Part shown: positions 3,431-26,975 of the stretch, piece after piece | Layout: each line of letters begins with the position of its first letter | Numbering within the stretch: position 1 is the stretch's first letter | Source: a virus | Taxonomy: Duplodnaviria; Heunggongvirae; Uroviricota; Caudoviricetes | IMG/VR virus record: IMGVR_UViG_3300033068_001142 | Span: 48,262-112,261 of that record | Reading direction: 5' to 3' (one strand) | Length of the DNA: 64,000 nt | The notes under the pieces: generated by a model | What the model saw: only the letters and a program-made list of their open reading frames with translations | Database searches by the model: none | Told to the model about the DNA's origin: nothing | Position numbers and translations under genes: made by a program

Positions 3431-4495
3431 CGTTTATATTCAACAGAAGTCGTTAATTTCTGCCGGTTCTCAGTAAGTATTTACATGAACTCCTGCATGT
3501 TTCCATGCAGACTAGACTATATCAACATCTCAAAAAGAGATGGAACCTGTTTCCTTCCACTTGGAAGTACGAGCATTTCAGCTCTAGTCGTTGGACATTT
3601 ACAGCATAATTGCTGATTTAGTAACAGATTGCCCTCGTCTTTACGTTAGGGGTTTCCTGTTTTAAGGTTCTTTAGACATGAAATCGCTTTCATGAATGCC
3701 TATACTTGATAAAAATTTAACAGTTGTTTTATTAGTTGGAAATACTATTTCAGAATCGGATAGTAAGTTATTATTAGAATGTGGCCAATTCATTAATTTT
3801 ACAAAAGAGTCGTAAGCCTTTGCTGCTTCTATTGCTGATTTAAATGATCCTATTCCGTAATGTTTATGCTCGTAATTTATATGAGCTACCCATAGTGTAT
3901 CATGTATTTTAATTATACCTTTATAACCGGTAGTATTAGTTTTTTTGATTGTACGTTGATTTACTATTTGTATAGAATAATTAACCCATCTACAGTTAGA
4001 TGGTTCATAGTTACCGTCGTTATCTTTACGGTCTATAGTAAGTCCCTCTTGATACCCGTTAGAGATAGCCCAATCATAAAAAGCGTCAAATGAGTTTATC
4101 CATTCTTCACACATAGTGATATTTTTACTAAGGTATGATACTGATCTAGAATCTGTACATTTTAACTTAGTTTTAGTATCTGCCCAAATTCTATAAAGTT
4201 TATGGTTTCTGTTTGGTTTTTTATTTGATGTTCCGTTACATCCTTTACAAAATAATTGATTTTGTGATTTAGTTGTAACTACTGCATCAAAGTGGGATAA
4301 ACAGTTTGTACATTCGAATGTTGCCATTCTTACTTTTTTGTAATAATTTTCCGTTGGTTTTTTCATTCCAAGATCTTTTATGACTTTCATTTTGAAAGTG
4401 TATTCTGTTAAAGGTTTTAGTGCTGCCATAATAATGCTCCTTATATGTTTTAATAAGTATAGCATAATTATGCCAAAATGTCAAGTATTTAGTTA
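3431..4495 (-). ncRNA. Group I intron (IA, T4-like core) interrupting the exonuclease gene; carries an HNH endonuclease ORF
   Basis: Exon 1 ends GCU, followed by an in-frame UAA. The 3' part carries Q-like AAAUCAGCAAUU, R GUCCAACGACUAGAG, S UGAUAUAGUCUAGUCUG and AAUUAACGACU 17 nt before the terminal G. Splicing restores the Exo II motif ...VWHNA|SFDLKH. Confidence 0.75.
3662..4465 (-). CDS. Intron-encoded HNH homing endonuclease
   Basis: 267 aa with an HNH_3-type motif ...DRKDNDGNYEPSNCRWVN... It lies entirely inside intron 1 on the same strand. Confidence 0.75.
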   Translation of the reverse strand: MLYLLKHIRSIIMAALKPLTEYTFKMKVIKDLGMKKPTENYYKKVRMATFECTNCLSHFDAVVTTKSQNQLFCKGCNGTSNKKPNRNHKLYRIWADTKTKLKCTDSRSVSYLSKNITMCEEWINSFDAFYDWAISNGYQEGLTIDRKDNDGNYEPSNCRWVNYSIQIVNQRTIKKTNTTGYKGIIKIHDTLWVAHINYEHKHYGIGSFKSAIEAAKAYDSFVKLMNWPHSNNNLLSDSEIVFPTNKTTVKFLSSIGIHESDFMSKEP

Positions 4496-4882
4496 AGCGT
4501 TGTGCCAGACTTGTTTTATTGGTGTTGTAACTAGCCAGTTTAAGGTGATGTCTCGCATACGTGTGTCTGTGAAAATGATTACGTATGCAGTTGTTTCTGA
4601 TGTTGCTATGGAGCAGTGTGTCATCCTAACGAGTGATGGATGTGAAATACCAGAAGATAGAATGGCTTGGTTTGTTTTATGGTAAGCTAATGAGTTGGGT
4701 GGTAGAGCTGCAAGTTTTAGTTTTAGTCGTTCTTTTTCCTCGTCAGTGTACTTGGATGCAGTTTCAAAGTCACAAGCGATTATTGGGTAGGTTTTTGCAA
4801 TGTCTTGTAGCGTTTGAAGGAGTAGTAATTGGTTAGTTATTACAGTGTAAGTTACTGTTGTTGAGGTAGTCAATGTTTCCAA
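4496..4882 (-). CDS. DnaQ-like 3'-5' exonuclease, exon 1
   Basis: Exo I motif IIACDFETAS. The exon ends ...IKQVWHNA, the first half of the Exo II H-N-A-x-F-D motif, and is immediately followed by a stop inside the intron. The start is an apparent TTG with an AAGGA RBS. Confidence 0.75.
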
Positions 4883-5108
4883 GTTCTGTCCTTAATTGTA
4901 TTTTTGGTTCAACGTAGCGGTATTCTAGTTGTACAGCGTTTAGTAATACTTTGTGAGCTCTTGTACAAGCGACATAGTAAAGATTTAGTTCAGTTTGTTC
5001 TTCCTTTGTTAGTTGGTCGTATGTGATGTTTTTAGAAGCCATAGAGATTTGTACCATTTTTACGGCATTGTTTAAGTCATCAGCAATGTAAACCTCGTCA
5101 TACTCAAG
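4833..5108 (-). CDS. SF1 (UvrD/Dda-like) DNA helicase, exon 2
   Basis: It begins LEYDEVYIADD... immediately after motif V and contains YVACTRAHKVL, the SF1 motif VI. The junction ...TAHSTKG|LEYDEVYI matches the UvrD pattern TLHSAKGLEF. Confidence 0.75.
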   Translation of the reverse strand, partial: LEYDEVYIADDLNNAVKMVQISMASKNITYDQLTKEEQTELNLYYVACTRAHKVLLNAVQLEYRYVEPKIQLRTELGNIDYLNNSNLHCNN

Positions 5109-5389
5109 CATTATGTTCCGTATAAGGCGTTAATTTATACGTGCAGCATTACCTGCAACTATACATTACTGTATAGATCAGACTATATCTTCATCCCAGT
5201 AGGATGCTCCCCGTTTCCACCCACTTGGGTGTACGTGCAAAAGCACTAGTCGTTGAACGTTCCTCGTTATGAGGCTTCGCTGCTGATTGTCCTAGGAGTA
5301 GGATGTCCCAGCAATTAGAGGAGTTTTGATACACATTACTGTGTAAAAGGGCCTATGTAGTTTTATTATGAGTCACTCAACTTAAATTA
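5109..5389 (-). ncRNA. ORF-less group I intron (281 nt) in the helicase gene
   Basis: Exon 1 ends GGU, followed by UAA. Core elements read on the minus strand: P UAAUUGCUGGGACA, Q CAAUCAGCAGCG, R GUUCAACGACUAGUG, S GAAGAUAUAGUCUGA, and AAUUAACGCCU 16 nt before the terminal G. Confidence 0.8.
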
Positions 5390-6625
5390 ACCCTTAGTTG
5401 AGTGAGCTGTTCCTAAATGGAAAGAGCTTGTTAGTCTTTCGTGTTTTTTTGCTTCTTCGTAACAACTAAGTACTCCAGTAACTCTGTATTTTAGAATTAG
5501 ACTGATTGCTGTTGATACTTGCTGGTCTTCTTTATAGAGGTCTTTTAAGTAGTTTAAGTGGTTTCTGTACTTTAAAATTAGTTCTCTATCTTCGTAGTAG
5601 TCGTTGATGTCTTGTTGAATGCTTTTGAATTCAACTGGCATGAAGCCTTTGTTTTTAGAAAGACAAAGTGCTTTCGGTAATGAGAAGATATCATCAGCTG
5701 AACGAGTTAAGGTGTACGGGACTTTTAGTTCGTTTAGTTCCATCATTTTAGAGATTAGTGTTGTGTTTGTTCTTGCAATGAAGGCTTGGGTTTTTGGTTT
5801 GTCTGGTGACTGTTCAGTTCCGTTGAATACCATTTTAGGATCTATGTAAGTTTTACAGTAGCTGTTGACTCTTTCTGCAATTTGAGGTGAAACTCTAAAT
5901 GACTTTGACATTGGGAATTCTACACCAGTTGATTTCATTACGTTGAAGCAGTTAATGGTGTGGTTAAAGCTGTAAATGTTTTGACGAGAATCTCCGACTA
6001 AGAGTTTCTTGGCAGAAGGGATTAGTTTAAAGATTTCTAGTGTTACTGGGTTGATGTCACCAGCTTCGTCAAGAGCAATGAAGTCAAATGGTTGGTAAGA
6101 GATGTGGTCGGTAGCTAAGAGTATATGGAAGTATTTTAGGTAAAATTCGTGAGTACATTCGATGTCACCACTTTCCATTTGATGGATATAGGATTCTAGT
6201 AGTAATAGTTCTTTTTCTGTTATGGGTACTTTTTCTTCTTTGCAGAAGTCTGAGAAATGTAAGTGTTTAGATAGAAAGTACTCTTTTAAGTAGTCTACGA
6301 GTTCACAACGTCTTTCGTATGGAATGTCTTGGTTGATGTTACGGTAATTGAATTTGCCGAGTGTTAAGTGGTTTTTTACTACCGTTGGTCTGTAAGCTAA
6401 TGAATGTACGGTACAGCAAGTTACTGTTTTGGGGAACTTGGATGCAGCTTCGGTTGCAATGCTTTTATTATAAGCTAAGTAAAGAGCGTTAGTAGGGTTA
6501 AGTGCTTTTGCTATTGATACTAAGAGCGCTGTTTTTCCTGCCCCTGCTACGGCATTTACTTTTACGTAGCCATCATTAGATTTTACATGATTTAGTATTT
6601 GGTGTTGTTCGTCTGTTAATTTCAA
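5390..6625 (-). CDS. SF1 (UvrD/Dda-like) DNA helicase, exon 1
   Basis: Walker A AVAGAGKTALL, motif Ia TVHS, motif II ALDEAGD, motif III LLVGDSRQ, motif V TAHSTKG at the extreme end of the ORF. Confidence 0.75.
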
Positions 6626-6760
6626 TAAAAATCCTTAGTGAAGATATTAAAGGTATTAATACCTTTGTAAAGATTTATAGTAGCTAGGAGAGAGATTAGC
6701 TACTATAAAGTTGAAGGGGAGTTAAAAATACGGACTTATACCTGAAGGATGCCGTGAGTG

Positions 6761-7492
6761 TTACTTTCTAAATAAGCTGCCTGCAGGTTTTACTTGTGAC
6801 GCTGGAGCTGTTGATTTAGTAGCTGTAGCATCGTTTGATTTAGCCTTTTTCCAAGCTTCTACATCTTCAGCTGTTAAGTCGTCTAAGTAACGAACAGCAT
6901 CTGCGTAACTTGCTTTGTCTTTTTCAAGTTGAACACCAACTTCAGAGTTGTTAACGATTTCTCTAACAGATGCACCGTCTTCTGCTCTATAAAATGCTAC
7001 TGGTACCATTGATTTTCTGATTTCTTTAGTTGTAGCGTTGATTGAGTATTCTTCTTGTAATCTGATTTTGATTGGTAAGTCTGTGAATTGAGTTATGATG
7101 TTGAACTCTTTTGCTTTTGCTTCTTTACCAACTTTGAATGTTTCTTGTTCTACTTCTAATTCGTCATTGTCACCTAAACCTGCAATAACTCCTAATGAGT
7201 TGATTAATTGCATACCAATTTTTAATGGTTCGTTTTTTGTTGATGTGATGTATGGTCCGTAGATTGTTTGAGCATTACCGTTATACTCGATGTTAAAGTT
7301 AACAGATTGAGCTCCGTTTTTAGATACTTCTACCGAAGCGAATTTGATGATTACGTCATAGATACCAGACTTGCTGATGTATGATGAACCTCCGCTTGAT
7401 TGAATAGCGTCTGAGTTAGTTGAGATTTTAAATAATTTCATTGTGGTCCTTTTTGAGTTGAGATGTATGCAAAATATTGCATAAGAGAGCAC
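6761..7492 (-). CDS. Hypothetical protein (possible ssDNA-binding or annealing accessory protein by position)
   Basis: 243-aa ORF between the helicase and a RecA-like ATPase. No motif was recognised. The real start is probably the internal MKLFKIS. Confidence 0.3.
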   Translation of the reverse strand: MLSYAIFCIHLNSKRTTMKLFKISTNSDAIQSSGGSSYISKSGIYDVIIKFASVEVSKNGAQSVNFNIEYNGNAQTIYGPYITSTKNEPLKIGMQLINSLGVIAGLGDNDELEVEQETFKVGKEAKAKEFNIITQFTDLPIKIRLQEEYSINATTKEIRKSMVPVAFYRAEDGASVREIVNNSEVGVQLEKDKASYADAVRYLDDLTAEDVEAWKKAKSNDATATKSTAPASQVKPAGSLFRK

Positions 7493-7519
7493 TAGGAGAG
7501 GTAGTGCTCTATATGAATA

Positions 7520-8194
7520 TTAAAGAAGGAATTCTTCGAATTCTACAGCTTTTGCTGATAATTGGTCTAAGTGATCTTGAAGAGAGTAGTCTTCAATGTT
7601 TACCGAATCAGGCACGTCTGCTAACGTTGTTCTTGATGGATACTTTAATCCTTTTAAGTGGACTACTAGTTTACTAGATTTAACCTCGATAAAGGCAGCA
7701 TCGTTAACAACAGAAGTCCATGAGCCCGCTTTTGCAAATGCTCCAGTAGCTGGAATAATGTGTCTTGCAGTAGCTTCGTCATATAAAGTGTGGGCAACAA
7801 TAACTACATTGATACCTGCTGGTATAAGCTGTTGTTCAATGAATTGATTGAATGCCATTGTTTCTTGATTGTTTTTGGTGTGGACGTCAAAACCTTTGTA
7901 TTTATCCGAGTTGTACTTTTGCATAGCAGAGTACATTTGAGTAACTGTGTCAAATACAACTGTTTCTGGGTAGTGTCCAAATTTGTCGTGGTATGCTTGA
8001 AGCTTACCTGTAAATTGTTCTAATAGTTTGTCCATACCTTCGTACTCTTTTATGTTAACATGAGGTACTTTAAAACCGTATTCTTTTTGGTCTAAGTTAA
8101 AAATTAGGGGGTTCCTTAGTGCTGAAGTTAGGGTTGATTTTCCTGACTTTTCAAAAGCACATAATAGAAATTTAACTCCTGATTTTGCTGACAT
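7520..8194 (-). CDS. RecA-fold P-loop ATPase (Sak4-like)
   Basis: Walker A FEKSGKST near the N-terminus and a Walker B-like VVFDTV. Size and context resemble phage Sak4-type ATPases. Confidence 0.5.
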   Translation of the reverse strand: MSAKSGVKFLLCAFEKSGKSTLTSALRNPLIFNLDQKEYGFKVPHVNIKEYEGMDKLLEQFTGKLQAYHDKFGHYPETVVFDTVTQMYSAMQKYNSDKYKGFDVHTKNNQETMAFNQFIEQQLIPAGINVVIVAHTLYDEATARHIIPATGAFAKAGSWTSVVNDAAFIEVKSSKLVVHLKGLKYPSRTTLADVPDSVNIEDYSLQDHLDQLSAKAVEFEEFLL

Positions 8195-11632: not shown

Positions 11633-12120
11633 GAGTAGTCCTTTACGATTGTGTCGAATACTTTCTTGTTTGGGTGATAACGTGGGTGTGCATCGATTTC
11701 GGAGGTAAAGCTTGTTTGATAGTTGTATTTAGCATCTTCACCAATACCGAAATACTTGATACATTCAATGGCCTTACCAACTCCAGCTGAGCGAGAAACT
11801 CCAGCTCGACATTGAACTAAGAAACGAGAAGTTAAGTTGCCTAAGATGAACTGTTGGAGTTGCTTGCCTTGCTCGTCGGTGATTGGTAAGTAGTTGCCGA
11901 TTTGTTCCTCGATATCCCAGAATTTAAGTTTGATACAAGATTTAAACCTACCAGCGTCAAGGTCTGATATAGCCTCGTCTTGGTAATGCTCGAATAAAGG
12001 CTCAGAGATGCTGATTAAAACTAAGTTAGATGGATCGAATGTTGGGTCAGATAAGAGCTGTCGCATTTCATGACGGCCAATAATAGCTTCGATTGTGGAA
12101 GTAGAGACAGAGTTTACCAT
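11629..12120 (-). CDS. Cys-based (CX5R) protein/polynucleotide phosphatase
   Basis: VQCRAGVSRSAG matches the HCxxGxxR(S/T) P-loop of protein-tyrosine/dual-specificity phosphatases. At 163 aa it is the size of a minimal DSP fold. Confidence 0.55.
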   Translation of the reverse strand: MVNSVSTSTIEAIIGRHEMRQLLSDPTFDPSNLVLISISEPLFEHYQDEAISDLDAGRFKSCIKLKFWDIEEQIGNYLPITDEQGKQLQQFILGNLTSRFLVQCRAGVSRSAGVGKAIECIKYFGIGEDAKYNYQTSFTSEIDAHPRYHPNKKVFDTIVKDYS

Positions 12121-13883
12121 CTTAGTACCTGATTGAGTACTGTGATTTGTAAACGGTCTTGTGGCATGCTGTATAACCAGTAATCGTTGATACGGTTGAT
12201 TAAGTCGATTACTTCTTGTTTTTCCATTTTTAGATCGAAGTAGGCGTATTTAGCTGCCCAAATTAGTTTACGTGAGCCTTCGCCGTCAGCTGCGTTGAAT
12301 GCTGGTGCAAATGTTACTGATTCATTAGCTATTAGTGATTTACGTTGAGCGTCTGAAAGAGTTTTGGCAACAGTTGAGGGTGCGTTTTCAGATGCTTCGT
12401 GGGCTTTCATTAAGTAGTCACGAACAGAAATTGGCGTTGCGTCTGTAACTGAAAGAACAGTACGAGTTGAGTCTTTTTCCCAGTACGAGAAGAAGATTTG
12501 TGATTGCGGTAAATGGTCAACTGTTAGTGATAAGTCTTCAGCAATTGATGTGTAGAAGTTTCTCCAAACAATTGAGTCAACGTCAACTACTGAGTCTAGT
12601 TCTAGTAGTACTCTGAATTTGTATTCGTTGTGTTGGTCAGAACCAAGTGCAATGTGGTGATTGATGTCTGACAGTAGGAGGTGAGCTTCGCTAGCCGTAA
12701 TTAGAGATGAGTCTATGTCTAATACTAGCCATTTTGCACCACTAATGATGTTGGCTTTTCCACGTACTCCGTCCTTGAATTGGAATGGTGAGTATGCAAA
12801 GTTGCCTTGTAGCAGTTGAGCTAAGTCAGCAAATGTTGCAGGTTCACATTCAAATCCATAGGTTGCTGAAGCTGCTACTGACGATTTTAAGTCACGTATT
12901 GTGTCGTAACTAGCGTTTTGTTTAATAGCTTCTAGTAGTTTGTCGTTGTTGATTGGTTTAACTGATACTAAGAGAGAGTCTGTTCGTTGGATACGCTTGT
13001 AGTGGATGTAGACTCCGTCTTCAGAAACAGTGTAGATTCCAAGTTTGTCATAGACAGCAGCTGGTGCTATTAGTTCTTTTAAGCGGGTTTTAGCGTTGGC
13101 TGTTGAAGCTATGAAACCTTTTTTCTTTAAGTTGTGAATGTCAATTGAGGTTTCACCAGTAATGGCATCAACTGAAGATTGCATGTAGTCAGCAAATCGT
13201 TCGTATGGAAGTTTATTTAGTTCCAGTTCGAAAAGTTCCATGTCATGTGATAGAGACTCACAGAATCTAATAGCTTCAATGTAGTGGTCAAGTGTGATTG
13301 AGTCAGCACAGTAGATTAATGCTAGAGCACCTGCTAGTTTGAGGGCTTTCCATTGAAGATGTTTACGAACCAATGCTGAAACAGATGAGGGAGCTAGTGA
13401 TGTTGTTGCTAGTTCTTTGTTGTAACGTTTGTAGACTTTGAATGCGTCGACTACGGCTTTGTCAATTGGTAAAAGTTCACCGGCTTTTGTTAGCTGGTAT
13501 TGAGTGATTTGCTTCATTTCACTAGAGATTGATTCTTGTAGTGAAATAGCGTGGTAGTCAGCACCGTTGTCTGAAGCTAAGAAGGCTTCGATGGAGTCGA
13601 ATTCAGGTTCGCTAAGTGATTCAGGTATGTAGCAAAAGAATGAACGTCTAGCTAGTTTTGACATGAAGGCTAGTTGGAATTTCTTTTTAACAGTCTCGTC
13701 ATACAGGATGTAAGCTGGTGAGCCTACGAAGAATGCTGATACTGGTTGACCTTTGATTTCAGAAGAACGAGAATCTACTCCTTTGGTGTACTTAACCTCT
13801 TTTTCACCGACGTCGTAAACTTCAGCTAAGGTTTTGATGTTTTCAAGAATGTCACCGTTAGTTGCAAGTTCGTCTCCAAGTTC
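12114..13883 (-). CDS. Putative DNA replication protein (primase/primase-polymerase-like), exon 2
   Basis: About 590 aa continuing from exon 1. It contains ...GAKWLVLDIDSS... (a D-x-D motif of AEP/TOPRIM type) and a C-terminal helical region. The exact 3' splice site is inferred from the conserved AAUUAACGACU + 16 nt + G spacing and the reading frame (...LLYAG|ELGDEL...). Confidence 0.45.
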   Translation of the reverse strand, partial: ELGDELATNGDILENIKTLAEVYDVGEKEVKYTKGVDSRSSEIKGQPVSAFFVGSPAYILYDETVKKKFQLAFMSKLARRSFFCYIPESLSEPEFDSIEAFLASDNGADYHAISLQESISSEMKQITQYQLTKAGELLPIDKAVVDAFKVYKRYNKELATTSLAPSSVSALVRKHLQWKALKLAGALALIYCADSITLDHYIEAIRFCESLSHDMELFELELNKLPYERFADYMQSSVDAITGETSIDIHNLKKKGFIASTANAKTRLKELIAPAAVYDKLGIYTVSEDGVYIHYKRIQRTDSLLVSVKPINNDKLLEAIKQNASYDTIRDLKSSVAASATYGFECEPATFADLAQLLQGNFAYSPFQFKDGVRGKANIISGAKWLVLDIDSSLITASEAHLLLSDINHHIALGSDQHNEYKFRVLLELDSVVDVDSIVWRNFYTSIAEDLSLTVDHLPQSQIFFSYWEKDSTRTVLSVTDATPISVRDYLMKAHEASENAPSTVAKTLSDAQRKSLIANESVTFAPAFNAADGEGSRKLIWAAKYAYFDLKMEKQEVIDLINRINDYWLYSMPQDRLQITVLNQVLRW

Positions 13884-15138
13884 CGTGATATTCACATGCA
13901 GTCGTTAATTGCATGCCGTGAGACACTGCTCACTGCTACATGTTTCCATGCAGACTAGACTATATCTTTACCCGTTTAAAGGTTATTTAAGTTACTATAT
14001 GGTACACTACTAAAAATTTTAACAAGGAATACCGATGGAAATATATAAAGACATAAAAAATTATGAAGGAATATATAAAGTATCGAATTACGGTAATGTA
14101 TATTCTTACTACACTGATAAGATACTGAAACCTATCAAATTTAAAACTAACGTAACTACTTATTTAAGAGTAGATTTAGTAAAAAATAAGAAAAAGTGTA
14201 AGCACTCAATACATAAGCTAGTAGCAGAAGCGTTTATAGAAAATATTGATAATAAACCATGCGTTAATCATATTGACAATGATGCTAGTAATAACCGTGT
14301 TGATAACCTTGAATGGTGTACACATAGTGAAAATTTACTACATGCCCAAAAACAAGGGAGGTTATATGAAGCTCAAAGTAAAGGTGGAATAACTACTACA
14401 AATAAACTAAAGAAATTAGCTGTAGAAGATGCTCACTTGATGGTAGATAAGGTTTATGGCACATGGAAAGTATTAGTTCATACAGGAACTAAAACGGTAT
14501 CAAAAATTCTTGAACGTCATACATTTAATTGTAAGTGTGTAAATTGTGGTAGTGAAAAAGAACTAACTAGGGATTACCTTAAAACTGAACCTAAACAATG
14601 TAGAAATTGTGATGCAATTAAGAAATCACATAACAGATATTTAGAAGCAGTTAAAGAATTAGTTAGTAGTAAATTAAATAATTGGACAATTTTAGAAATT
14701 ACTAAACCAACAACTACTATTAGAAGTAGTAAGTTACTAGTTAAGTGTGAATGCGGTCATAATGACGAAATTCCATATGGCAGCATTAGCAAAAAACAAT
14801 TTAAAAAATGTCCTAACTGTAAATTAGGGTAGCTCCTATTTCCCTCCACTTGGAGGTACGTCTTTCGACTAGTCGTTGAACCTTTAACCTGAAAATAGGT
14901 TACTTGGCTGCTGATTGCCCAATCTAATCAATTTTTAACATTCAAGCTCACTCTTACGAGTCACTTTGTAGTTTGATTAGCTCTAAGGGGTTTCCAGCAA
15001 TTAAAGAGCTTCATATTACACATTACTGTGTAAATGGGCTAGTAATATACATTGCTCTTAAATCTAGTAAATAATACTATATCATTTGTCTATTTTCATC
15101 TAATAGTATTTAGTAGATAGCACAAGAATATTACGTTA
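13884..15138 (-). ncRNA. Group I intron in the replication-protein gene, carrying an antisense HNH endonuclease ORF
   Basis: Exon 1 ends GGU, followed by UAA. Core elements: P UUAAUUGCUGGAAACCCC, Q GGCAAUCAGCAGCC, R GGUUCAACGACUAGUCGAAAG 5' of the ORF, S AAGAUAUAGUCUAGUCUG 3' of the ORF, and AAUUAACGACU near the 3' end. Confidence 0.7.
14035..14832 (+). CDS. HNH homing endonuclease (NUMOD4 + HNH_3 type) encoded antisense inside intron 3
   Basis: 265 aa: YKVSNYGNVYSY (NUMOD4-like), VNHIDNDASNNRVDNLEWCTHSEN (HNH), C-terminal CxxC pairs. It is the only plus-strand gene in the 0-44 kb block. Confidence 0.75.
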   Translation: MEIYKDIKNYEGIYKVSNYGNVYSYYTDKILKPIKFKTNVTTYLRVDLVKNKKKCKHSIHKLVAEAFIENIDNKPCVNHIDNDASNNRVDNLEWCTHSENLLHAQKQGRLYEAQSKGGITTTNKLKKLAVEDAHLMVDKVYGTWKVLVHTGTKTVSKILERHTFNCKCVNCGSEKELTRDYLKTEPKQCRNCDAIKKSHNRYLEAVKELVSSKLNNWTILEITKPTTTIRSSKLLVKCECGHNDEIPYGSISKKQFKKCPNCKLG

Positions 15139-15633
15139 ACCTGCGTATAGGAGCCCAGCACCTATAGGGTGTTCTGCGATGTCATTAATATGTTGGATTA
15201 GTCCTGGGCCAGTAGTTGGTGACATGAAGATTGGGGCTGGTTCTTTGTAGAATGGTTTTGGGTCTGTTTCTCCAGCTTCTTGCATTTTCTTACGAGCTTC
15301 TGCTTTAGCTAGGGTAGTGATTCGCTCTTTAATGTCATTGTAGCCTAGTGAGAAACATTTACGAGCTGCACGAACTGAGGAGTCTTTGTGGTCACCAGAG
15401 CCTGTTACTACGAATGAGATTGAGTTAATTGGTACTGGTGTACCATCCCAGTGGTTGATGTTTCTACGGAATTGTGAGGCAAATGTCATTAACTCAGAAA
15501 CAGCTATAGTTAGTTTCATTCGTTCTGGGACGGTTGCAAAAGGGATTGTGTCTGCGATTTTTGAGATGATTGGTGATTGCTCTTTTGAGAATGCACCTTT
15601 GTCTTCAAGGTATTGTTTAGTTAGTTCTAACAA
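15139..15633 (-). CDS. Putative DNA replication protein, exon 1
   Basis: 165-aa ORF ending ...GAGLLYAG immediately before the UAA that opens the intron, the same exon-U|UAA junction as the other three introns. Confidence 0.5.
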
Positions 15634-20990: not shown

Positions 20991-22308
20991 CTGGTATGTA
21001 TATGCACATTGTTACTTAGGTATTTTTCCGTTAAGTACGTCCTCAATAAAAAGCTCTGTCGATTCTTTAGTTGAAGTTCTTAATTCTTTATAGTCTAAAA
21101 GAATGCTTTGTTCTAATAGGTATGCATTATAAAGTGTAGTTTCAAAAGTATCAATTATGCTAATGTCACATTTGAACTTAGACTTTAATGCATTTATGCG
21201 TTGTTTTAAATTTATAGTTATTCCAATTTTGAAGTATTGCCCTATTTGTAAATAATATAGGATAGCGGGTTTGTTTTTAAGATCATCACTTCTACTAAAT
21301 ATTGTCTCACAATACCCACCTGGTAGTTTGCCTTCTAGACATAGTGCATCTATTGTACATTTAGGACAACCTTGTCCAGCTATGTGTTTTTGGGCTGATT
21401 TTTTAAATTCTCCATGCACTTCACAGTAACAAGTAATGATTGACTTTTTGTTTATGTAATTACTACATTCGTAAGTATACTTACCGTTATATAAGTTTGT
21501 GGCATAATCAATAAATTCCTTAAACGTATGTGTTTTGATATTGGCTGATGATGCTATACCACATTTAGGACAACCTTTTGTCACATTTTTGCTTAATAGT
21601 GTATGCGGAGATGTTGAGTGTTCCCCATGTACTGGACATACTAAAGTTACTTTAGAATTTATACCAGTATAGTTATCTACTTTGAACTCAAAATTAGAAA
21701 ATTTATGTAAAAGTTTACTTTCTATTTCTTCCCATGTGTATTTTAATGGTTTAAATCCTGTCCGTCCTTTAGATTTTTGAGATCTCCTTAAAATTGCACA
21801 CTCCGGACATCCGTATATAGATGTTAAGTGTTTATCGGGGTTTTGTTCAAATTCACCATGGGTAGGACAAGTAATTATTGATTTTGTTTTAGCATTAGTG
21901 TATATAAACTTACTATAATCATACTTGCCATTATACTTTTTATTTGCTTTTTCTATAAATTTTTCTTTGTTTGTCATATTGTATCTCCTATCACTTATTG
22001 ATAAGTATACAATCTTTGTACTTAATAAATACTTAAGTAACAATGTGGACTATATCATCACCCTATAAAATAGGGGCTCACTGCTTCGACCCTGACAGGG
22101 GCCTACTCTCTTTCGAGATAGTCTCTGAACCTTCTCCTATACGGAGCTTGGCTGCGGATTGACCAATATTATAGATTTTTACTGTACTGTAGATAGTTAC
22201 TCTACACCCTATGCTATATTTCTATGTATAGTTAGTACTATAATATTAACGGAAGTTCCCGCAATTCAATGAGTTTTCGATATGGATTACTCCATAAAGG
22301 GGCCATTA
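20991..22308 (-). ncRNA. Group I intron in the NAMPT gene, carrying a Zn-ribbon/T5orf172 (GIY-YIG superfamily) endonuclease-like ORF
   Basis: Exon 1 ends UUU, followed by UAAUGG. Core elements: P CAUUGAAUUGCGGGAAC, Q GGUCAAUCCGCAGCC, R AGGUUCAGAGACUAUCUCGAAAG, S GAUGAUAUAGUCC, all 5' of the ORF. The NAMPT ORF stops in the middle of the conserved GSGG region. Confidence 0.7.
21012..22043 (-). CDS. Intron-encoded endonuclease-like protein: 3x Zn-ribbon repeats + C-terminal T5orf172 domain
   Basis: Three repeats of CPxHGE(F/H)x(13-16)GCPxC. The C-terminus ...ILYYLQIGQYFKIGITINLKQRINALKS matches the T5orf172/GIY-YIG-like motif. The probable true start is the internal ATG (MTNKEKF), preceded by AGGAGA. 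Confidence 0.6.
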   Translation of the reverse strand: MLLKYLLSTKIVYLSISDRRYNMTNKEKFIEKANKKYNGKYDYSKFIYTNAKTKSIITCPTHGEFEQNPDKHLTSIYGCPECAILRRSQKSKGRTGFKPLKYTWEEIESKLLHKFSNFEFKVDNYTGINSKVTLVCPVHGEHSTSPHTLLSKNVTKGCPKCGIASSANIKTHTFKEFIDYATNLYNGKYTYECSNYINKKSIITCYCEVHGEFKKSAQKHIAGQGCPKCTIDALCLEGKLPGGYCETIFSRSDDLKNKPAILYYLQIGQYFKIGITINLKQRINALKSKFKCDISIIDTFETTLYNAYLLEQSILLDYKELRTSTKESTELFIEDVLNGKIPK

Positions 22309-23727
22309 AAATGTTAACCCAATGCCTAATACTATGTTATCAGAAGCAAACTTTTTGTCTGCTAATTTTTTAAGGATAGTGTCTTGTCTTTCTAATGTGA
22401 TTGAGTCTCCGTAGATTAAGCCTACGTATGGTGATAAAGTTTTGTAACCTTTATCGTTTGTAGTGCCTCCAAATACGTCCCAAAGACACTTGATTGCCCC
22501 TTTAATTTGAGCTTCTGAAAGTAACTCAAAAGTATCCTCATTAATAACTTTGAAGCAGCCTTCTTTACAAGAGATGTAGAAGCTGCCCATATAAGTATGT
22601 TCTGCTGCTTCCTCTAATGTTAAAGTTGGAAACGATTGGTTTATTTTAACGCCGCAAATAACATCTACTGGATTACCTGAGTCAGGTCTAAAGACTACTT
22701 TAGCTAATCCTAGAGCATTTGGTTGACGAGATTCAATGATTGGTTTAAGTACTTTTATACCATATTCCATCATATACCAGAAGTCGAATGAGTCAGCAAC
22801 TATTGAGATAATTCCAGTTGGGTATAACTCTGTTATTAAGTACCAAATGTAAGCAATTTCTGCTAGTCTTTGAGTGTTTATGTGTGTACTGTCATATTGA
22901 AGCATGTCAATTGATAGGATTTTGTTAGCAGGAGTTACCCATTTACCAGTAATATCTAGTGATTGTTGAATGTTAGCAATGTTAGTACACATTACACTAT
23001 GTTCAGTTGCTGGAACAGATGTTCCTACTAATGACTTAGTGTAATCAGCAAAATAGTAGTCTTTTGCTCCTTGGATTGCTAAACAGGTGTCAGTTCCTAC
23101 AAAAGAGAATAGGTGTGATATTTGGTTTTTGTAGGCATCTTCCCTGTTTGATAGTCCTCTAGCAGAGAAATCATGTCCTTGAAATATTACAAATCCTTTG
23201 TCTGCACCAGTTAATTCTGCGTAGTGTTCAAAAGTTTTTCGGTATTCGTAAGCTATAGTAGCGTTTGTTGACATTTTCCATAACTCTGATGACATTACAG
23301 TTTCGATGTAGTTAACTAACCAACTAAATTTTGGGTGCGTATTTACTATAGTTAGTACTGGTATCTTAGCTGGAACTAGTGTGCCTTCTGGTAAAGATTT
23401 GATTTGTAATGGTAGGTATCCTAAGTCATGTAGTTCTTCTACGTGGTCAACTGGTATTGAATCTGGTCCAAGTGTTGAATCCATGAATAGTTTATACGAT
23501 TCTACTACTTCTTTTTTAGGTTTGTTAAAGAATCCTTCATTCCATTCTTTAATTAAGTAGTCCATGATGAAGGCTTGTAACCCTACCCATACAAGCTTAT
23601 CTGATGAGCCTTTATATCTTTTGAAAGATCTTGGTGTAAAGTTAGAGTAGACTAATGTAGTGTTTTGAGGGTACTGTCTTCTATGGTCAGCTTTATAGAA
23701 GTCTATAGCTAATAGTGGGTTAAGCAT
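22309..23727 (-). CDS. nadV: Nicotinamide phosphoribosyltransferase (NAMPT/NadV), exon 1
   Basis: MLNPLLAIDFYKADHRRQYP... is the characteristic NAMPT N-terminus. The ORF ends ...NIVLGIGLTF, truncated at the conserved GSGG block. Confidence 0.75.
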
Positions 23728-26898: not shown

Positions 26899-26975
26899 TG
26901 GAGCGCATAGAGGAATTCGAATCCCCATAGTCAAGCTTCGCGGGCTTGGTCATTGTCCAGTTATGATATATGCGC
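26899..26975 (-). tRNA. tRNA (77 nt with encoded CCA); anticodon loop CCGCGAA, apparent anticodon GCG (Arg) with C at position 33
   Basis: Manual cloverleaf on the minus strand. Acceptor GCGCATA/TATGCGC (7 bp), U8, D stem TCAT/ATGA with GG in the loop, anticodon stem CAAGC/GCTTG, 5-nt variable loop, T stem GGGGA/TCCTC, T loop TTCGAAT, discriminator T, CCA. Confidence 0.6.

Follow-up and report, generated by a model that had tools for sequence, protein, structure and literature searches.

An apparently intact group I intron without an endonuclease gene inside motif V of a phage UvrD-like helicase gene

The window, by which we mean the whole 64,000-nucleotide stretch of phage DNA that was analysed, very probably carries at 5389..5109 on the minus strand an intact IA2-type group I intron that lacks a homing-endonuclease gene and lies inside motif V of a UvrD-like SF1 helicase gene; its catalytic competence is what we infer from the sequence and predicted fold. 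The initial annotation had proposed a group I intron at 5109-5389, and these coordinates proved exact on the evidence of the Rfam RF00028 match (98.3 bits), an empty allele on the contig L002, a restored UvrD_C domain and helix covariation.

The helicase gene and the intron boundaries

The ORF list divides the helicase gene into a 412-aa frame at 6625..5387(-), whose C-terminus ...FHLGTAHSTKG is followed by TAA, and a 92-aa frame at 5111..4833(-) with the translation MLEYDEVYI...YVACTRAHKVL. For the purposes of annotation, these two ORFs (412 + 92 aa) are one 503-aa helicase gene, which is organised as follows.

5390..6625, minus strand: helicase exon 1, 412 codons, with a TTG start and the end ...TAHSTKG, its final base U at 5390
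5389..5109, minus strand: group I intron of 281 nt without an endonuclease gene, the in-frame stop UAA first and omega-G (5109) last
4833..5108, minus strand: helicase exon 2, 91 codons plus stop, LEYDEVYI...YVACTRAHKVL, holding the remainder of motif V and motif VI

Every combination of exon-end U and intron-end G with an open frame was listed, and 5390/5108 was the sole U-to-G junction that gave the gapless TAHS[ST]KGLE[YF]D of the homologues. This sets U(-1) at 5390 and omega-G at 5109, directly before CUUGAG. The spliced product of 503 aa has its residue junction at 412/413, reads TAHSTKGLEYDEV, and matched the Pfam families UvrD-helicase, AAA_19 and UvrD_C, all above cutoff. The first two families were matched by exon 1, while the UvrD_C match (39 bits, cutoff 25.6, residues 122-467) crosses the exon junction and its cutoff was missed in Pfam by each exon alone. 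Since UvrD_C rises above its cutoff solely in the spliced form, removal of the intron restores a continuous domain. It was also noted that the spliced product is collinear over the junction with the uninterrupted helicase of Alteromonas phage AD45 (42.6% identity; motif V region TAHSSKGLEFDQV), with the database proteins P0001-P0003, and with the human FBH1 helicase (9xzj_F), whose alignment is unbroken there (LGTVHKAKGLEFDTV...NLLYVAVTRAKKRL). Judged by these alignments, the host gene is a UvrD-like SF1 helicase, motifs V and VI included. The insertion splits KG/LE within the conserved TxHxxKGLE[FY]D block; the break between TAHSTKG and LEYDEVYI had been read correctly in the initial annotation, but its placement after motif V gives way to one inside the motif, as the FBH1 and homologue alignments indicate.

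The protein search recovered P0001, which has 99% identity to the spliced helicase and is encoded on the contig L002. The identity of this contig to the window is 92-98% across some 10 kb and 96-98% on both intron flanks, and it aligns to 6540..5391 and then to 5108..4496, so that precisely 5389..5109 (281 nt) is missing. Nucleotide identity was 96.4% between exon 1 and L002 7521-8670 and 98.5% between the exon 2 side and L002 8672-9284. The absence of exactly 281 nt from L002, which reads through as in the spliced product, fixes both splice sites, and no group I intron was found by Rfam anywhere in L002. The intron-less junction is AAG GGC/CTT GAA TAT GAC GAA, against AAG GGT/intron/CTT GAG TAT GAC GAG in the window. 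Within 60 nt of the junction the two alleles differ only at -1, +6 and +15, each time synonymously, and the next nearest differences are at -187 and +63; at -1 the intron-bearing allele has the U that P1 requires and L002 has C. Such a cluster may be read as the expected trace of a short co-conversion tract or of adaptation to P1.

Only one other contig, L128 from another SRA run, contained the exact intron. Over 4,952 nt its identity to the window is 100%, and as the two may share a source, it was not accepted as independent confirmation. A megablast search of the phage collection with the helicase region gave zero matches, and a search of the viral contigs with the single helicase protein gave zero related loci; the relatives were found through the protein database.

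Ribozyme core and covariation

Comparison with the Rfam group I model RF00028 (gathering score 50 bits; consensus of 253 positions), a check that the initial annotation had suggested, returned a match across the full model (1-253) at 5398..5159(-), with 98.3 bits and E=3.5e-24. The P, Q, R and S elements that it had recognised were present, the consensus strands of P4, P7 and J8/7 being aligned almost letter for letter by Rfam. The helices downstream of P1 were assigned as follows.

5330..5345, minus strand: P2 hairpin UACACA/UGUGUA with a GUAA tetraloop; 6/6 paired, and 6/6 pairs compensatory in alignment A1
5318-5323 with 5207-5212 (span 5207..5323), minus strand: P3; 5/6 pairs compensatory and 100% of cells paired
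5257..5313, minus strand: P4-P5-P6/P6a domain with the P element UAAUUGCUGG and the Q element AAUCAGCAGC, from the Rfam alignment, RNAalifold and pair counts
5247..5251, minus strand: P7 5' strand GACUA of the guanosine-binding helix, R element GUUCAACGACUA, pairing with 5181-5185
5243-5246/5235-5238, minus strand: P7.1; all pairs compensatory, fully paired
5227-5231/5218-5222, minus strand: P7.2; all pairs compensatory, fully paired
5192..5206, minus strand: P8 hairpin CAUCCU/GGGAUG; paired, from alignment A1
5181..5191, minus strand: J8/7 and P7 3' strand, S element AAGAUAUAGUC; exact Rfam consensus, invariant in the relatives
5159..5176, minus strand: P9 hairpin with a GUAA tetraloop; paired, from alignment A1
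5153-5157/5142-5146, minus strand: P9.1; fully paired, from the minimum free energy (MFE) fold, beyond the Rfam model
5135-5141/5119-5125, minus strand: P9.2 with the loop AUUAACGCC; fully paired, from the MFE fold, beyond the Rfam model

P3 encloses P4-P6, the P7 5' strand, P7.1 and P7.2. All 15 helices of the window intron, P1-P9.2, are fully paired, and the MFE fold of the intron alone recovered most of them (z=-3.1). Covariation was assessed on alignment A1, which comprises the guide-to-P9 region of the window intron and 17 relatives from viral contigs (n=18). From this alignment RNAalifold predicted P2, P3, P4, P5, P6, P7.1, P7.2, P8 and P9 independently of Rfam, and the P7 pseudoknot was added to its structure before the pairing controls were run. 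Standard pairs filled 97.1% of the cells, compared with 32-46% when partners were slid by 1-3 columns, and 36/53 pairs were changed on both sides, compared with 10-18 after sliding; neither value was reached in any of 500 shuffles. The P7 5' strand was invariant in 18/18 relatives, and P7 is therefore uninformative for covariation. The joint presence of P7.1 and P7.2, which we take to be the signature of subgroup IA2 in the Michel-Westhof scheme, points to a probable IA2-type assignment for the helicase intron.

In several diverged introns, a P9.2-type hairpin with the loop ..(A/C)UUAACG(A/C)C.. and the tail GAAUAU..ACG precedes omega-G. In the window it was encountered, always on the minus strand, in the helicase (5119-5141), primase (~13895-13925) and polymerase-exonuclease (~3440-3470) introns, and elsewhere in the contigs L133, L003 and L006. 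Where the stem differs between the window and L133, the changes are compensatory.

Endonuclease genes and the other introns of the window

No endonuclease ORF was found in the helicase intron. Its single internal ORF, of 47 aa with a GTG start (5334..5191), was rejected as a coding gene on account of having no Pfam family match and overlapping the P3-P8 catalytic core, and the description of the intron as ORF-less was borne out. To call it minimal, as had also been done, overstates the case, since 281 nt exceeds the 253 positions of the Rfam consensus and is a typical size. Natural group I ribozymes smaller than 281 nt exist.

A permissive RF00028 scan found three more matches in the window, at 3721..3493 (78 bits), 22326..22026 (70.9 bits) and 15058..14732 (43.4 bits), which upholds the earlier count of four group I introns; the helicase intron, at 98.3 bits, scored well above all of them. 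The three are located as follows.

3431-4495, minus strand: polymerase 3'-5' exonuclease intron of 1065 nt, core at 3721..3493
~13884-15138, minus strand: primase intron, between exons 15633..15136 and 13895..12114
22326..22026, minus strand: core of the NAMPT-gene intron, following the nicotinamide phosphoribosyltransferase ORF 23727..22306

The polymerase-exonuclease intron is inserted 613 nt downstream of the helicase intron and is likewise exactly absent from L002 (9284/9285). Its P1 loop, upstream of the core, holds a 267-aa HNH ORF (4465..3662), which is preceded by a promoter-like TTGACA...TATACT and an AAGGAG ribosome-binding site. The 265-aa HNH ORF of the primase intron (14035-14832, plus strand) is antisense to both the intron and its host gene, and its position in the apparent P8 loop accounts for the recovery of this intron in two Rfam pieces, one of 43.4 bits and one, from the 3' end, of 25.2 bits at 13970..13938. 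To our knowledge, antisense endonuclease genes in phage introns are unusual. The NAMPT-gene intron core is followed by a 343-aa endonuclease-like ORF (22043..21012).

The helicase intron had been placed alongside three ORF-bearing relatives. Each of the other three introns does carry an endonuclease-type ORF and belongs to the same class, but close relatedness was not found: the best local matches of the helicase intron to them reached 83% (47 nt) and 72% (85-86 nt), and global core identity was 50-62%. On these values, an origin of the helicase intron as an ORF-deleted copy of another window intron was rejected. Its core motif GGACAATCAGCAG...CAACGACTA was encountered in at least 120 viral contigs, and 356 records of the phage collection matched the intron by blastn; by this sequence comparison, it belongs to a class that is very common among phage introns. 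In the window as a whole, some 20 kb of replication and nucleotide-metabolism genes of an uncultured phage contain four group I introns. Rfam also matched a tRNA gene (RF00005, 49.4 bits) at 26902-26975 on the minus strand.

The guide sequence and a competing exon-L1 helix

The 5' splice site is framed by the following elements.

5390..5395, minus strand: P1 5' strand AAGGGU, the six bases that end the exon, U(-1) adjoining the splice site; pairs 6/6
5347..5352, minus strand: internal guide sequence G38CCCUU43, the P1 3' strand, giving a U(-1).G38 wobble
5353..5389, minus strand: P1 loop (L1) of 37 nt, from comparison of introns at the same site
5373..5405, minus strand: 10-bp perfect inverted repeat astride the 5' splice site, exon UCACUCAACU (5405..5396) with L1 AGUUGAGUGA (5382..5373)

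A GCCC guide lies just 5' of P2 in every intron found at the same site in related phages, which identifies G38CCCUU43 as the guide of the window intron. The Rfam assignment of P1 and P2 (intron nt 1-37, with P1 in nt 1-21) is one base out of register and was rejected, because it puts the U.G pair one base downstream, without an in-frame junction, and conflicts with L002. In relatives from other genes, exon ends and guides read from alignments covary as UCGU/GCGA (L119, L085, L094) and GCGU/GCGC (L022), and further pairs are GGGU/GCCC (L048) and GGGU/GCUC (L088). A P10 adjoining the guide has 2 bp only; UUUAAG (nt 4-9) would give 6 bp, but does not directly adjoin the guide.

The inverted repeat makes exon positions -16..-7 complementary to L1 nt 8-17, and a 10-bp complement was reached in 14 of 20,000 shuffles. 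The local MFE fold prefers this exon-L1 helix (-19.9 kcal/mol, against -15.0 kcal/mol with P1 enforced), which puts the splice site in a hairpin loop. It was not found in the other introns at the same site. The helix could be a competitor of P1 that is relieved by translation, or a historical scar.

This predicted local advantage over P1 is one reason to consider a group I relic that splices poorly, in which case the helicase would be a pseudogene or scarce and the phage would rely on another helicase. Such decay would also be in keeping with the weak P10 and with the lack of an endonuclease, without which there is no selection for mobility. Against it, all core helices are fully paired, the strands of J8/7, P7 and P4 agree with the consensus, both U(-1) and omega-G are present, and the Rfam score is well above those of the other window introns. 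Both exons are open, and the differences from L002 at -1, +6 and +15 are all synonymous. We consider a relic improbable, and continue with the intact intron as the preferred reading.

Introns at the same site in other helicase genes

Four other helicase lineages of uncultured phages, drawn from Logan, ENA, JGI and IMG/VR datasets, have introns at the same insertion point (KG/[LS]E). These introns are listed with that of the window in order of L1 length.

L006/L007: intron of 298 nt, L1 of 15 nt, no ORF in L1
Window: intron of 281 nt, L1 of 37 nt, no ORF in L1
L133/L140: intron of 348 nt, L1 of 42 nt, no ORF in L1
L004: partial, the contig ending within the intron, L1 of 47 nt, no ORF in L1
L003/L005: intron of 1188/1192 nt, L1 of 910 nt, 277-aa HNH endonuclease ORF in L1

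A scan of viral contigs for the junction pattern gave 12 matches, among which only L133 and L140 were genuine; the remaining 10 were chance protein C-termini of the form AHSxKG followed by a stop. The introns at this site share with that of the window the insertion point, the exon end AAGGGU, the intron start UAA, a GCCC guide followed by P2, and the P9.2 ..UUAACG.. loop, while the length of L1 varies and the long P5 extension of L006/L007, L133/L140, L004 and L003/L005 is absent from the window intron. Over 207 aligned columns, the window core shares 59-61% identity with the other motif V introns, compared with 67-72% for introns from family-B polymerase, ribonucleotide reductase and capsid-like genes. 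In a crude neighbour-joining tree without support values, the other same-site introns form their own clade (L133,(L006,(L003,L005))) and the window core groups elsewhere. Divergent cores at one site suggest either independent colonisation or long divergence.

The endonuclease ORF sits in L1 both in the L003/L005 introns and in the polymerase-exonuclease intron of the window. Within the same-site clade, the nesting of the endonuclease-bearing L003/L005 among ORF-less forms weakly favours a gain of the endonuclease gene in L1. The L1 sequences themselves were set aside as arbiters of ORF loss against gain, as the ORF-less loops of 15-47 nt are too short and their 3' ends are constrained by a possible P10. 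By eye, the 37-nt loop of the window is longer than the ~8-10 nt of the off-site L048 and L119; it is too short for recognisable ORF remnants, and the window intron may either have lost an ORF or be a ribozyme that never had one. A joint reading, in which the motif V site was colonised independently by at least two intron lineages, an HNH gene was captured into the P1 loop of the other lineage and the exon-L1 helix acts as a translation-gated switch, is speculative and in our estimation rather unlikely. If true, it would offer a natural series, complete with an empty allele, of ORF-less ribozymes and endonuclease genes assembling into mobile introns.

A second explanation, that two polypeptides (412 aa, and 92 aa from an AUG at 5111-5109) assemble without splicing and the RNA between them is a spacer, takes its appeal from the ATG exactly at the 3' end of the insert, by which the downstream ORF is formally MLEYDEV. 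The break would nevertheless fall within the contiguous motif V strand (KG/LE), no clear Shine-Dalgarno sequence precedes the ATG, the supposed spacer is a full-scoring ribozyme and the G of the ATG is its omega-G. The introns of the relatives at this site end in ...ACG, without an ATG. We regard separate polypeptides as very improbable, even more so than a relic. An assembly chimera, in which an intron from elsewhere was joined into the helicase gene, can practically be dismissed: although the assembly is of unknown quality and L128, the only identical contig, may not be independent, the insertion is base-exact and in frame with U(-1) and omega-G, its guide is complementary to this very exon end, and the identical codon boundary is occupied in four other lineages from different datasets. 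Splicing of a genuine intron from a single helicase gene is the reading that we retain below.

Other insertions were observed in homologous helicase genes. The homologue P0075 (818 aa) has a LAGLIDADG-domain intein at motif III (VGDA/C...VHN/CQN), and with the intein in that position, an intein at motif V was rejected. In L140, besides the motif V intron, the tblastn match to the helicase is broken by ~1.6 kb (6479-8076, residues 187-215) near the region of the P0075 intein. L002 has its own insertion of ~950 nt (6566-7520) at the helicase Walker A motif, holding an HNH/endonuclease-VII-like ORF that is broken by an in-frame TGA; downstream of it lies a second, divergent helicase N-terminus (MKLTSEQLAIVDYTCNQLGKEDAGYLRVNAVAGS), and P0001 has an out-of-frame called start. 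The helicase gene looks like a hot spot for mobile elements, which differ from phage to phage.

Proposed splicing and spread

In the proposed mechanism, which is the usual two-step route of group I introns, the pre-mRNA would fold into P1-P9.2, with a U(-1).G38 wobble where G38CCCUU43 pairs with the exon-end AAGGGU. P7 would bind an external guanosine that attacks after U5390, after which omega-G (5109) would occupy the P7 site and the freed 3'-OH of exon 1 would attack after omega-G. The resulting ligation would join ...AAG GGU to CUU GAG... and yield the 503-aa helicase. The UAA of intron nt 1-3 would halt ribosomes at the intron border. Under the speculative switch reading, a ribosome that reaches this UAA would also melt the exon-L1 helix and allow P1 to form. 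A stop codon at the start of an intron is common and is thought to protect ribozyme folding (review, PMC3984707).

As the helicase intron lacks its own endonuclease, we infer that it is incapable of autonomous homing. It could spread by general recombination between phages, by the action in trans of an endonuclease that cuts empty sites, such as an L003-type HNH enzyme, or by co-conversion with the HNH-bearing polymerase-exonuclease intron 613 nt downstream, which L002 lacks as well. Trans or collaborative homing is reviewed in PMC3984707, with a T4 demonstration (mobE/I-TevIII) in PMC2790892.

Comparison with known phage introns

The helicase intron is genuine, precisely bounded and apparently intact, and it is a known kind of phage intron that leaves the knowledge of group I introns unchanged. 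ORF-less examples of phage IA2 introns are the orf142 introns of Staphylococcus phage Twort and the ribozyme cores of T4 td, nrdB and nrdD. The window intron can be likened to these in its P3-P8 core with P, Q, R and S elements, its P7.1 and P7.2, the GNRA loops on P2 and P9, the conserved site in a DNA-metabolism gene and the in-frame stop at the intron start; these features are given as general in PMC3984707. By blastn, it matched introns of Twort-like Staphylococcus phages at 67-70%. Its own features, in contrast, are the site in helicase motif V, the 37-nt L1 and the 10-bp complement to the upstream exon.

Phage genes for replication and nucleotide metabolism are well known to contain group I introns, some with ORFs and some lacking them (PMC3984707), and helicase-gene introns are described in the Staphylococcus myoviruses Romulus, Remus, K and G1 (PMC5526547). 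The latter interrupt the same kind of host gene, but in a different phage group and a different helicase, and serve as a precedent at the level of the gene.

With regard to mobility, the window resembles the collaborative homing of T4-type phages and of the cyanophage psbA intron in having an endonuclease-free intron at a site that endonuclease-bearing elements target in relatives as well, and it has an HNH-bearing intron 613 nt away in the same genome. Unlike in those systems, the helicase intron has no free-standing endonuclease gene beside it, and the likeness in mobility is an analogy. One codon boundary nonetheless offers a series consisting of an empty site, ORF-less introns and an endonuclease-bearing intron, which could be of use in studying the persistence and spread of introns that lack an endonuclease.
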